Source: an uncultured Clostridia bacterium
GTDB lineage: Bacteria > Bacillota > Clostridia > Christensenellales > Borkfalkiaceae
Assembly (NCBI GenBank): GCA_944343275.1
Contig: CALVMH010000003.1
Coordinates: forward strand, 31,632-95,631
Direction of reading: 5' to 3'
Length of the DNA stretch: 64,000 bases
A model generated the notes under the pieces. That model was not told where the DNA came from and did no database searches. It worked only from the letters and a program-made list of their open reading frames with translations. The position numbers and the translations under genes were made by a program. This document shows, piece after piece, positions 57,255 to 61,358 of the stretch; the first letter of the stretch is position 1; every line of letters starts with the position of its first letter.

Positions 57255-57291
57255 AAAAACGCCGCTCTACCCAAAGTAGAGCGGCGTTTTT
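57255..57291. terminator. bidirectional intrinsic terminator ending the pfl operon
   Basis: AAAAACGCCGCUCUAC-CCAAA-GUAGAGCGGCGUUUUU. It touches the zinc-ribbon gene stop codon. Confidence 0.8.
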
Positions 57292-57563
57292 CAACGCAAA
57301 AAGAGCACCAGCGCGATGACCGCCACGGCAATGACCGTGCCGACAATGTAACAGACGGTGCGGATCTTCTTCTTTTTCTGCGGATCCATGGGCCGATAGC
57401 CCGCGGGAACGAGCTCCCCGCCGCAATAGGGACAGCGGGCCATGTGGTCGAGCACGCTCTTCCCGCAGTGCGGGCAGGGCAGGACATGCTTTTCCAGCCG
57501 CGCGCGCCGCCGCTCGGCGCGCGCCTCTTCCCGCGCAAGGCGTTCGTCTTCGGGACGCATCAC
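57291..57563 (-). CDS. zinc-ribbon membrane protein (hypothetical)
   Basis: CPHCG...CPYCGG double CxxC motif followed by one TM segment ([20 protein letters not shown]). Its start (GTG 57563 or ATG 57560) overlaps the stop of the GrcA-like gene. Confidence 0.6.
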
Positions 57564-57796
57564 ATGCTCTCGTGGATGGTCCGCGCAATGACGTCATCCT
57601 GCTGTTCTTTGGTGAGTTTGTTGAAATTCACCGCATATCCGCTCACGCGGATGGTGAGCTGCGGATATTTTTCGGGATGCTTCTGCGCGTCGATGAGCGT
57701 CTCGCGGTTGAAGACGTTGACGTTGAGATGATACCCGCCGTCGCCCACATAGGCGTCCAGCATATTGACGAGGTTTTCCGTTCTCTGATCGGACAT
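57560..57796 (-). CDS. autonomous glycyl-radical domain protein (GrcA/YfiD-like); corresponds to the missing C-terminus of PflB
   Basis: The 78-aa product [78 protein letters not shown] carries the RVSGYAV glycyl-radical fingerprint. It has its own AGGAGG RBS 7 nt upstream of ATG 57796. Confidence 0.85.
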
Positions 57797-58073
57797 GATA
57801 TTTCCTCCTGAAAGTTTTTTAAGGGAAATGCGCCGCTCTTCGGTCATTCCGGACGGCGCGGCGTATGCCGCGGAGCGCGAGAATCCCTTGGCGCATTACC
57901 GCTCTTACACGGTGGGATTCTTCGCTATCGCTCAGCATGACGCGTTTTGCGGGCTTTCGGTACAGCCCTTGCCTCCCCTGTGCAAGGGGAGGCAAGAAAG
58001 CGTGCCCTGCCCGTGTTTTCTCTCAAATCACGGCAAAGATTTTTGCCTTTGCAAAAAGAAATTCGTGAACCCC

Positions 58074-60113
58074 CTATTCCTTCCCCAGCGACTGCGGCGT
58101 GACGGAGAAGGTGTTGGAGATGCCGTCGCGGGCGTAGTCGTAGGGAAGTTTTGCGACCGATTCGAGCGAAGCGAGCGCGCCGTGACTGTCCCTGCCGTGC
58201 ATGGGATTGGCGCCCGGCGCGAGCGGTTCGCCCGCCCGCCTGCCGTCCGGCGTGTTGCCTGTCTTTTTGCCGTACACCACATTGGAAGTGATGGTGAGGA
58301 TGGACATGGTGGGCACCGATTCGCGGTACGTCGTATGGGACTTGATGAAGTTCATGAACGTCTTGACGAGCCAGACGGCGATCTCGTCGGCGCGGTCGTC
58401 GTTGTTGCCGTACTTGGGATAGTCCCCCTCGATCTTGAAATCGGTGACGATGCCCTTTTCGTTGCGGACGGGGTACACCTTTGCGTACTTGATGGCGGAG
58501 AGGGAATCTGCCGCGCACGAAAGCCCCGCAATGCCCGTGGCGAAGAAGCGGCGCACTTCGCTGTCGTGCAGCGCCATTTCGAGCGCTTCGTAGCAGTACT
58601 TATCATGCATGTAGTGGATGACGTTGAGCGTGTTCACATACAGCCCCGCGAGCCAGCGCATCATCTCCGTGTACTTCGCCTTCACCTCCTCGAAGCTGAG
58701 GGGACCGTCCCCCGTGACGGGCGCATAGGGCGGCGAGACCTGTAAAGGATTTCCCGCCTTGTCGCATTCCAATTCGTCCTTGCCGCCGTTGATGGCGTAC
58801 AGCAGGCACTTGGCAAGGTTGGCGCGCGCGCCGAAGAACTGCATGTCCTTCCCGACGCGCATGCTCGAAACGCAGCAGGCGATGCAGTAATCGTCCCCCA
58901 TTTCGGGACGCATCAGATCGTCGCTCTCATACTGGATGGCGCTCGTCGCAATGGAGACCTGCGCACAGAACGTCTTGAAATTTTTGGGAAGGCGCCGCGA
59001 CCAGAGCACGGTGAGGTTGGGTTCGGGCGCGGGACCCAGATTGAAGAGGGTGTGCAGGATGCGGAAACTGTTCTTTGTGACGAGCGGTCTGCCGTCCACG
59101 CCCATGCCGCCGATGCTCTCCGTCACCCACGTCGGATCGCCGCTGAACAGTTCGTTGTATTCCCGGATGCGCATGAACTTGACGACGCGCAGCTTCATGA
59201 CGAAGTGGTCGATGAGTTCCTGCGCCGCCTCTTCCGTGAGCGTGCCCTCGTCGAGGTCGCGCTGGATATAGATGTCGAGGAAGGTGGAATTTCTGCCGAT
59301 GGACATGGCGGCGCCGTTCTGATCCTTAACGGCGGCAAGATAGCCAAAGTACAGCCATTGGATCGCCTCCTGCGCCGTCTCGGCGGGTCGGGAGATGTCG
59401 AAGCCGTAGGAAGCAGCCATCTCTTTGAGCCTGCCCAGCGCTTTTATCTGCTCGGAGAGCTCCTCCCGGTCGAGGATCTTGTCGGGCGTCATTTCCCCGC
59501 ACAGGAGTGCTTTATCCTCCTGCTTCTTTTTGATGAGGTAGTCGACGCCGTAGAGCGCGACGCGGCGGTAATCCCCCACGATGCGCCCCCTGCCGTAGGT
59601 ATCGGGCAGCCCCGTTAAAATGTGTGCGTGGCGGGCGAGCCGCATTTCGGGCGTGTAGGCATCGAACACGCCGTCGTTGTGCGTCTTGCGGTATTTGGTG
59701 AAGACCTCCCTGACCTGCGGCGAAATATGATAGCCGTACATTTCGAGCGCCTCCTCCGCCATGCGGATACCGCCGAAGGGCTGCAATGCGCGCTTGAAGG
59801 GCTTGTCCGTCTGAAGCCCGACGATCTTTTCGAGCGTCTTGTCGAAATAGCCCGCCGCATGCGAATTGACGCGCGAGACGATCTCGGTGTCGGCGTCGTA
59901 CACGCCGCCCCGCTTGCGCTCCTCCTCGGAGAGGGCGAGCACCTGTTTCCAGAGCGTCTTTGTCGCCTCCGTTGCGGGCGCGAGGAAGCAATCGTCCCCC
60001 TCATAGGGGGTGTAGTTGCGCTGGATGAAATCGCGCACGTCCACTTCATCGTTCGACCATCTGCCGCGTTCAAAAGAGCGCCATGCCTTTTCAAAGTCCA
60101 TTGTCGTCACCAT
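58074..60113 (-). CDS. pflB: pyruvate formate-lyase catalytic body (679 aa) lacking the C-terminal glycyl-radical domain
   Basis: PFL N-terminus ([35 protein letters not shown]) and active-site Cys pair ([16 protein letters not shown]). It ends at ...[15 protein letters not shown] followed by TAG, which is where full-length PflB continues into the radical domain. The start could be 60113 or 60101, and the RBS is weak. Confidence 0.85.
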
Positions 60114-60180
60114 ATCGTAATGTATTTTGTGAATTTATCCCGTGTTTTACGCATGCACGGCGCAGATCCCGCCGACGGGG

Positions 60181-60453
60181 TCAGGGCTGCTCCGCAAGTT
60201 TTGCATCCAGCCAGAGTTCTAAAATTTCCTCCGGCTGAAAGCCCGTGCAGCGGGCGATCTCCTGCCCGTCCCGAAAGACGATGAGCGTGGGAACGCGCAC
60301 GATCTCCAACGCGCGCACCCGCTCCGCATTCTCCTCGTTCACTTCGAGATGCCCGACGGGAATGCCCCGCGCGGCGGCAAGCCTGCGGACGACGGGCAGC
60401 AGGCTCAGGCAGTTTGCGCAGCCCTCGCCGCTCACTTCCAGAAGTTCGTACAT
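60181..60453 (-). CDS. thioredoxin-fold protein (CxxC)
   Basis: The 90-aa product contains GEGCANCL, with VPTLIVF as the cis-Pro loop region. Start ATG 60453 follows GAGGUGA. It lies between pflA and pflB. Confidence 0.65.
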   Translation of the reverse strand: MYELLEVSGEGCANCLSLLPVVRRLAAARGIPVGHLEVNEENAERVRALEIVRVPTLIVFRDGQEIARCTGFQPEEILELWLDAKLAEQP

Positions 60454-60461
60454 CGTTCACC

Positions 60462-61190
60462 TCAGTGCGCGTATTTCCCCGCGCGCAGGATGCGCTTTGC
60501 GTTCTCCACGCGTTCGGGAGAGGGCGGCTGCACCCCTTCGAGGGGATAGCCGCGCAGCAGCGCACGGTACTTCTGCACCCCCATCGTGTGATAGGGCAGC
60601 ACCTCCACCCTGTCCACATTGCTCAACGAATCGAGGAAGGCGCGCAGTTTTTGCAGCATCGCATCGTCGTCCGTCAGACCGGGAACGAGCACGTGCCGCA
60701 CCCACATCCTGACGCCCTCCCCCTCCAAAAACTTTGCAAACGCCAGCACGGGCGCATTGCTCCTGCCCGTCAGAAACCTGTGCGCCGTGTCGTCGATGTG
60801 CTTGACGTCGAGCAACACGAGGTCTGTGACGCGCGCGAGCGCCTTGTAACGGGCATCCTCTTCCGAAAAACAGACGCCCGATGTGTCGAGGCAGGTATGG
60901 ATGCCGCGCTGTTTTAGAAGGGTGAAGAGTTCGAGCACGAAACCGAGCTGCATGAGCGGCTCGCCGCCCGAAACGGTGACGCCGCCGCCCCCTGCAAAAT
61001 AGCTCTTGTATTTGAGCACCTCGCGGGCGACGTCCTCGGCAGACATCTCCTGCCCGCCCGCAGCGTCCCACGTGTCGGGATTGTGGCAGTACTTGCAGCG
61101 CATGGGACAACCCTGCAAAAAGACGACGGAGCGGATGCCGGGGCCGTCCACCGTTCCGAACGATTCAAATGAATGCACCCGACCGACCAC
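60462..61190 (-). CDS. pflA: pyruvate formate-lyase activating enzyme (radical SAM)
   Basis: GRVHSFESFGTVDGPGIRSVVFLQGCPMRCKYCHNPDTW (CxxxCxxC cluster). Start reset to GTG 61190, 5 nt after GGAAGGGGG. The ORF-track start at 61235 would lie inside the riboswitch terminator. Confidence 0.85.
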   Translation of the reverse strand: MVGRVHSFESFGTVDGPGIRSVVFLQGCPMRCKYCHNPDTWDAAGGQEMSAEDVAREVLKYKSYFAGGGGVTVSGGEPLMQLGFVLELFTLLKQRGIHTCLDTSGVCFSEEDARYKALARVTDLVLLDVKHIDDTAHRFLTGRSNAPVLAFAKFLEGEGVRMWVRHVLVPGLTDDDAMLQKLRAFLDSLSNVDRVEVLPYHTMGVQKYRALLRGYPLEGVQPPSPERVENAKRILRAGKYAH

Positions 61191-61205
61191 GCGCGCCCCC
61201 TTCCG

Positions 61206-61312
61206 ATAAAAACAGGCAATCTTTGATCCCCTCAAAAATTGCCCAGACGAACGACATTTCCGCCCTGCGGCTTCACGCGGTGCTCCGCTTTTGCTTCGTC
61301 AGTTGCCGCAGG
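61206..61312 (-). promoter_or_regulatory. ZTP riboswitch (pfl motif) with terminator expression platform, upstream of pflA
   Basis: Minus-strand RNA is UGCGGCAACUGACGAAGCAAAAGCGGAGCACCGCGUGAAGCCGCAGGGCGGAAAUGUCGUUCGUCUGGGCA. P1 is UGCGGC/GCCGCA. The conserved ACUGACG, GGAGC and CGUCUGGGCA elements are present, and GACGAA/UUCGUC has pseudoknot potential. Next comes the terminator GGCAAUUUUUGA-GGGGA-UCAAAGAUUGCC plus UGUUUUUAU, whose 5' arm overlaps the aptamer 3' end. Confidence 0.8.
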
Positions 61313-61329
61313 CGTCTTCAACTGCCCAT

Positions 61330-61358
61330 ATCATACCACAGCTTGCGCGGCTTGTCAA
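61330..61358 (-). promoter_or_regulatory. sigma-A promoter (extended -10) of the pfl operon
   Basis: Minus strand: TTGACA (61358-61353), 17-nt spacer, TGgTATGAT (-10 at 61335-61330). Confidence 0.65.

Follow-up and report, generated by a model that had tools for sequence, protein, structure and literature searches.

Introduction

Pyruvate formate-lyase (PFL) was the founding member of the glycyl-radical enzymes and is the most widespread of them; in textbooks it figures as a single chain. Beside the complete enzyme, small separate proteins that bear an RVSGYAV loop plus a helix at the C-terminus are known from Escherichia coli (GrcA, also called YfiD, next to PflB; PDB 1H16, 6OWR) and from phage T4 (Y06I). 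The main E. coli enzyme is complete, one chain of 759 residues, and GrcA comes into play only once damage has occurred: after activation by PflA, GrcA enters the PFL barrel and supplies the radical there, a mode of action that the small protein described below may share. PflA activates GrcA, whose radical then takes a hydrogen atom from C419 of PflB intermolecularly (PMC12338860). Here we analyse the pfl locus of an uncultured Clostridia bacterium (Borkfalkiaceae; assembly GCA_944343275.1, contig CALVMH010000003.1), in which the catalytic body and the glycyl-radical domain of PFL are encoded by two adjacent genes. Unlike in E. coli, the body never has a radical domain of its own, so that the small protein would be obligatory, and the locus very probably encodes an obligate two-subunit PFL. 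All coordinates refer to the window, that is, the whole stretch of 64,000 nt that was analysed.

A two-chain PFL has been made by engineering. The combination tPFL(1-695):truncYfiD(61-127), cut just before the last barrel strand, has wild-type architecture and, once activated, wild-type specific activity (Andorfer et al. 2021, PMC8683613). In a June 2026 review of glycyl-radical enzymes (PMC13450708), small radical proteins appear solely as repair parts, and an enzyme that is split by nature is not mentioned; another review assigns such proteins to facultative anaerobes (PMC12288474).

A catalytic body and a separate radical tail

The two genes and the sites within them are as follows:

58074..60113, minus strand: PFL catalytic body, 679 aa, equivalent to about residues 1-677 of E. 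coli PFL and ending ...SLGKE-TAG
58877..58872, minus strand: codons of the active-site C413-C414 in the body (IACCVS motif)
57797..58073, minus strand: non-coding spacer of 277 nt, from body stop to tail start
57804..57809, minus strand: Shine-Dalgarno sequence AGGAGG of the tail, 7 nt before the ATG at 57796
57560..57796, minus strand: putative glycyl-radical tail subunit (GrcA3-like), 78 aa, equivalent to about residues 678-759 of E. coli PFL
57640..57638, minus strand: codon of the radical glycine G53 (RVSGYAV), equivalent to E. coli G734

An earlier note on this DNA had claimed that a 679-aa body keeps the Cys-Cys pair and stops at SLGKE-TAG, and that after 277 nt a separate gene with its own AGGAGG encodes the missing radical domain with nothing lost. 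The open reading frame and its sequence at 60113..58074 confirm the former claim, and the latter is borne out by complementary Pfam and TIGR01255 coordinates. The Gly_radical domain of Pfam (106 positions) is divided across the genes: the end of the body covers positions 2-48, and the tail covers 51-106. Likewise, the PFL model TIGR01255 (744 positions) is divided into 1-662 in the body and 663-744 in the tail, with neither gap nor overlap, and the body alone already scores above its cut-off (1059.5 vs 994.2 bits). The body aligns to the E. coli PFL structure 1h16 at residues 9-677 and the tail at 681-759, tail residues R5 and G53 falling on R681 and G734, respectively, and the first 18 tail residues align to PFL residues ~677-694. 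Because of these alignments to E. coli PFL, the natural cut is placed, at the level of sequence, in a loop at ~677/678. Judged by the same comparisons, body and tail are complementary halves of one PFL, with nothing lost or duplicated.

The residues that carry the radical chemistry sit here on separate polypeptides. The C413-C414 pair in IACCVS (E. coli C418-C419) is invariant across 43 split-type bodies, and G53 in RVSGYAV is invariant across 14 tails. An AF2 model of the body alone, built from the alignment of the 43 split-type bodies, has a pLDDT of 85 and superposes on 2pfl with a TM score of 0.93 and an rmsd of 2.0 A over 666 columns; the last strand of the ten-stranded PFL barrel would be expected to come from the tail.

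Search for an intact PFL

A search of the draft assembly revealed no full-length PFL in this genome: its single PFL-like gene is the split body, and the sole other gene with a Gly_radical domain encodes an intact NrdD. Five other split-type genomes, one of them a complete chromosome, also gave no full-length PFL, each having one truncated body and one or two tails. Thus, the second intact pflB that the earlier note wanted looked for, as a sign of a pseudogene at this locus, was found neither here nor in the five other genomes. Two of the genomes carry a second, unlinked tail copy far from the pfl operon, namely the complete chromosome of a Clostridium sp. metagenome-assembled genome (MAG; G061:C1:857576-857818) and Breznakia blatticola (G063:C3:71581-71808).

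Conservation, spread and selection

Across 36 other species of the genus, the tail was found as a small open frame in 15 (81-181 aa, 88-96% identity) and as part of a fused gene in 3, while 18 gave no match. At all 11 genus junctions that were read, the body stops 0-4 residues past GK[DE], and a Shine-Dalgarno sequence of the AGGAGG type in corresponding position (AAGGAGA at one site) and an ATG precede M[SA]xQ..ENLV. The gap between body and tail ranges from 11 to 466 nt at these junctions, and among relatives overall from an overlap to 466 nt, with differing frames. The split is also kept at the same break point in a further genome (G053).

The arrangement extends far beyond the genus. In 75 of 86 loci from public assemblies, a sample biased toward relatives of the tail, the body ends at the same point and is followed by a separate tail gene. 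These split loci belong to Bacillota, Collinsella, Gastranaerophilales and Acholeplasmatales. The closest named relative with a split locus is Ca. Gallimonas gallistercoris (86% identity over body and tail); others come from Ca. Scatosoma, Borkfalkiaceae, Blautia, Lachnospiraceae and Gastranaerophilales. They include isolates (Collinsella aerofaciens, Breznakia blatticola DSM 28867 and a Ruminococcus isolate) as well as a complete MAG chromosome. A protein search returned at least 8000 candidates for the tail family. Among the matches listed, the named ones are called 'autonomous glycyl radical cofactor GrcA' or 'GrcA3' and stem from Clostridia, Ca. Scatosoma, Acholeplasmatales and Anaeroplasmataceae MAGs. 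The neighbourhoods on Anaeroplasmataceae-type and other contigs comprise pflA, a body of 676-677 aa and a tail of 76 aa, the latter two lying 1 nt or 20 nt apart as called. When 300 genomes from the class, each at least 90% complete, were drawn evenly and judged by open-frame length, at least 17 of the 179 other genomes with a PFL tail match carry a small tail frame, which corresponds to roughly a tenth of the sampled PFL-bearing Clostridia.

Pairwise Nei-Gojobori estimates gave a dN/dS of 0.06 for the tail (16 sequences) and of 0.10 for the body (last 340 codons, 8 sequences), at dS values of 0.6-1.8. Since both ratios are this low at such divergence, both halves have been under strong purifying selection since long before the genus species diverged, and a pseudogene, one of the outcomes that the earlier note had allowed for, is ruled out. 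Its proposal of a native split at the main pfl locus holds, as the break falls at the same site in 15 further species of the genus as well as in dozens of other lineages, isolates and a complete chromosome included. Its broader idea of a two-piece glycyl-radical enzyme in a Clostridia-type genome is supported as well, except that the arrangement is not special to this genome and belongs to a large, widespread family.

Split and fused forms

A maximum-likelihood tree built from 75 body-plus-tail sequences contains one clade (SH-aLRT 99) that unites every one of the 59 split genes with 6 fused genes. The other ten fused genes fall outside this clade, and at least 4 state changes are required. 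A single clean origin of the split was considered and rejected: the approximately unbiased (AU) test rejects a grouping of all split genes without the nested fused ones (p = 3.6e-5), a value to be read with the fact that the tested group was defined after the tree had been seen.

The six fused genes nested in the split clade are L111 (G031), L112 (G035), L051, L053, L082 and L092, two of which come from the window's own genus. They are candidates for re-fusions of a formerly split gene, and the simplest history suggested by the tree would be that the gene was split once, long ago, then spread horizontally across phyla and was re-fused about three times. Fission that recurred at this one loop could also have produced the pattern, given that the junctions of the nested fused genes resemble ordinary PFL.

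The spacer between body and tail

The tail lies in another frame than the body (277 mod 3 = 1), with more stops beyond the TAG of the body. The 277-nt spacer folds more stably than shuffled controls (z = -4.1). An Rfam search at E up to 10 identified no RNA family in it, the hits being noise only, such as miRNA-like hairpins. A third small gene was rejected, as a tblastn search of 13 middle proteins from other split loci against the spacer gave no real match.

Much of the spacer consists of dispersed repeats. Its modules, which lie at spacer positions 3-108 and 181-233, are each found again at 1-6 further places of the genome: three copies of a 312-nt tandem repeat on contig C19 match positions 15-61, a perfect 12-bp GC-rich hairpin formed by positions 82-108 (57968-57996) is present at 5-6 other genomic places, and positions 181-233 are found at three others. 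The 312-nt unit occurs in 2.3 tandem copies with 99% identity (L002:878-1593; G000 contig C19:20917-21632), and its first ~50 nt (TTCACG...GCAAAGGCAAAAATCTTTGCCGTGAT.TGAGAG) are the module that opens the pfl spacer. A similar first module stands right after the body stop in four related loci (L018-L021), and others have only 11-30 nt at this place. The opening module looks like a member of a genus-wide family of non-coding mobile or repetitive extragenic palindromic (REP)-like elements. Because of these dispersed-repeat modules and the short gaps in relatives, we read the spacer as a probable secondary, lineage-specific insertion of REP- or MITE-like (miniature inverted-repeat transposable element) DNA into a gap that was short in the ancestor. 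The spacer may influence how stable the mRNA is or how strongly the genes are expressed relative to each other, but we read it as no part of the enzyme mechanism.

The spacer contains no predicted intrinsic terminator and just a weak promoter-like site (9/12), for which reason body and tail are likely to be co-transcribed.

The pfl operon

The pfl region on the minus strand reads as one compact operon, in the order promoter, riboswitch, pflA, thioredoxin-fold gene, body, spacer, tail and zinc-ribbon gene, and the activase is thus linked to body and tail. Its remaining features are:

61330..61358, minus strand: sigma-70-like promoter of the operon, TTGACA-17-TATGAT, 11/12 matches plus TG extension (consensus scan, pattern match only)
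61234..61316, minus strand: ZMP/ZTP riboswitch aptamer (pfl motif) in the operon leader, Rfam RF01750, 53.8 bits vs a gathering score of 39
61245..61213, minus strand: terminator-like hairpin after the riboswitch, predicted site
60462..61235, minus strand: pflA, pyruvate formate-lyase activating enzyme (radical SAM), TIGR02493, 307.5 bits vs a cut-off of 231.75
60181..60453, minus strand: 90-aa thioredoxin-fold protein, in the interval between pflA and body, Pfam Thioredoxin, E = 2.5e-7
57291..57563, minus strand: 90-aa zinc-ribbon protein, Pfam Zn_Ribbon_1, start overlapping the tail stop codon (ATGTGATG)

PflA matches the Pfam domains Radical_SAM and Fer4_12; its longest open reading frame has 257 aa, and the true start probably lies a few codons inside it. 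The thioredoxin-fold gene is not universal among split loci, being absent from L025. Because the start of the zinc-ribbon gene overlaps the tail stop, it is probably translationally coupled to the tail. The zinc-ribbon protein has a hydrophobic C-terminus. Riboswitches of the RF01750 class sense a shortage of 10-formyl-tetrahydrofolate. The aptamer also precedes split pfl operons elsewhere (L032:136-217, L033:142-223, L035:297-378, L047:454-537), and this conservation points to a link between the split enzyme and one-carbon/folate status.

Proposed mechanism

From the layout of the locus and the homology to E. coli PFL, we infer the following course of assembly, activation by PflA and catalysis, together with a selective advantage. 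The ZTP riboswitch would turn the operon on when the supply of one-carbon units (formyl-folate) is short. The body would hold the whole catalytic barrel including the Cys-Cys pair, minus the last strand, and the tail, translated from what appears to be its own strong ribosome-binding site, would contribute a short stretch at its N-terminus that is homologous to PFL 678-694, the strand that the barrel lacks, the G53-bearing finger loop and the helix at the C-terminus. Docking of the tail into the body would complete the barrel and set G53 beside C413/C414. PflA from the same operon would then abstract hydrogen from G53, and the glycyl radical on the tail would generate a thiyl radical at the Cys-Cys pair, after which pyruvate and CoA would yield acetyl-CoA and formate, just as they do with the one-chain enzyme.

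As a tentative extension, to which we give rather less than an even chance as a whole, the tail may be a consumable 'radical cartridge': PflA would arm free tails, which then dock into a long-lived body; oxygen would cleave only the 78-residue tail at G53, which would be ejected and replaced, so that strict gut anaerobes would regain PFL activity while the ~76-kDa body is spared; and the supply of tails would be a control point for the flux to formate. This idea draws on the strong ribosome-binding site of the tail, on the extra unlinked tails in some genomes and on the third 'mimic' protein in other clades, described below. The replaceable cofactor that the earlier note had also brought up can be offered at this level of conjecture. 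If it were true, the advantage would be that oxygen destroys only a cheap, replaceable piece of 78 residues.

Several observations weigh against an obligate two-subunit enzyme. The genome is a draft, 92% complete and in 92 contigs, so that an unassembled intact pflB is conceivable. The tail scores just under the cut-off of the GrcA3 model NF038360 (154.8 vs 158 bits). The engineered tPFL:truncYfiD pair was activated far less than cPFL:YfiD (2.7 vs 15.9 uM radical; PMC8683613), and by analogy efficient activation of the natural pair should not be taken for granted. Finally, no recognisable Shine-Dalgarno sequence was found before the annotated ATG of the body (window 60114-60160, minus strand); since the tail start, in contrast, comes with a perfect AGGAGG-N7-ATG, body and tail may be produced in unequal amounts.

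Alternative explanations

A two-subunit PFL has to be weighed against three other accounts of what the locus is. The tail could be a spare part of the GrcA/YfiD type for an intact PFL elsewhere, the truncated body being in decay or non-catalytic. We consider this very improbable and largely refuted, as no full-length PFL was found in this genome or in the five other carriers and the body is under strong purifying selection. Moreover, the tail lacks the ~60-residue N-terminus of YfiD and resumes the PFL sequence exactly where the body stops; on the GrcA model TIGR04365 it reaches 100.9 bits against a cut-off of 170, with a match limited to residues 17-78. A single polypeptide restored by a self-splicing intron, a split intein, read-through or a frameshift would find some backing in the unusually structured spacer (z = -4.1) and in phage T4 nrdD, another glycyl-radical enzyme gene, which has introns. 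It has next to no probability in our view: the Rfam search, even with E allowed to rise to 10, hit no intron family, and orthologous junctions overlap or measure 11-30 nt, which is far too short for an intron, always with their own ribosome-binding site and ATG. Removal of the spacer at the RNA level, which the earlier note had named as a possible objection, is likewise ruled out by relatives whose genes overlap or lie 11-14 nt apart and by the lack of an Rfam intron match. The frames vary among loci, and in the window the tail is in another frame, with several stops between. A split intein was rejected because neither body nor tail contains an intein domain, both being fully covered by PFL homology, and fusion by read-through or frameshifting because of differing frames, multiple intervening stops and variable spacers. 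The split could also be an error of sequencing or assembly, or reflect a recent pseudogene confined to this MAG, as would be suggested by the draft state of the genome and by a spacer made of repeats; the chance of this is negligible given the same split in > 70 independent assemblies from different projects, isolates among them, and given dS near 1 with dN/dS < 0.11 for both halves. The artefact feared in the earlier note is countered by the same assemblies.

A further account leaves the two-subunit enzyme in place and addresses why the split exists, not what the locus is. The split could be selectively neutral: the gene broke where it codes for a surface loop, its two products can still come together, and this layout has lasted and spread without conferring a benefit such as the cheap renewal of a part damaged by oxygen. 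We find this quite plausible, though still somewhat short of an even chance. Fused genes are nested within the split clade and a tree with all split genes together is rejected (p-AU 3.6e-5), so that the state flips both ways, which is expected if both forms work about equally well and speaks for near-neutrality; the length of the spacer, from an overlap to 466 nt, is unconstrained. Against neutrality, the split form has been kept over deep divergence and across phyla, some genomes have an extra, unlinked tail gene (G061, G063), and a third conserved small protein has been added in other clades. Persistence across phyla, extra tails and the third protein suggest, but do not decisively, that the system was elaborated under selection.

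Comparison with known systems

The two-subunit PFL proposed here bears on how central fermentation is annotated and studied. The annotation 'PFL plus GrcA' would be misleading in many gut species, as the carriers of a two-chain PFL include Collinsella, relatives of Blautia and Ruminococcus, and Melainabacteria. The pair would provide a natural system for asking how activase, radical domain and barrel recognise one another, may explain how strict anaerobes cope with transient oxygen, and could serve as a template for engineered spare parts of other glycyl-radical enzymes. In full-text literature searches, neither a report of a naturally split PFL nor the name GrcA3 came up. Two recent structures match split-type bodies: PDB 38la_A ('Formate acetyltransferase', 687 aa) aligns with the body over its whole length and terminates a single residue past ...SLGKE, and 38lb_A ('Formate acetyltransferase', 739 aa) is a split-type body running 54 residues beyond the break point. 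Despite these two bodies, no tail chain was found among the PDB sequences searched. Since both entries were deposited recently (newer than 2026-04-08), split-type PFL proteins are evidently under study by others.

A three-piece form of split PFL, consisting of body, a 57-76-aa protein with a Cys motif and tail, occurs in Ruminococcus and Lachnospiraceae. It shares the break point and the tail family with the locus in the window, and its bodies belong to the same monophyletic group. The window differs in having neither the middle gene nor a Cys-bearing extension of the body, its spacer being non-coding repeat DNA. The conserved middle frame of 57-76 aa was seen in the body-tail gap of loci from Ruminococcus, Lachnospiraceae and related bacteria (L059, L067, L069, L070, L078, L079, L081, L084, L087, L090, L104). 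It resembles the front of the tail (..D.V.MLD....G.GH.N..), but a DC......AC..P cysteine motif replaces the glycine loop. In loci from Gastranaerophilales and Blautia, the body itself carries a similar motif, 'GCCE', fused on at its C-terminus.

The family to which the tail comes closest by name is NCBIfam NF038360, 'autonomous glycyl radical cofactor GrcA3'. Its 78-position model is covered by the tail from position 2 to 78, and NCBI labels close relatives with 86-90% identity GrcA3 or GrcA. The name implies a repair part, whereas the evidence presented here points to a constitutive subunit. Residues 68-127 of E. coli YfiD align to tail residues 19-78. In place of the disordered ~60-residue N-terminus of YfiD, the tail carries the PFL 678-694 segment, and unlike pflB and grcA of E. 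coli, both genes adjoin in one operon. The engineered tPFL:truncYfiD pair is the nearest counterpart in architecture. It was cut at 695/696, whereas the natural cut lies ~18 residues earlier, at ~677/678, which leaves the natural tail with an extra N-terminal segment; and while the engineered pair is poorly activated, a natural pair that has co-evolved may not be.

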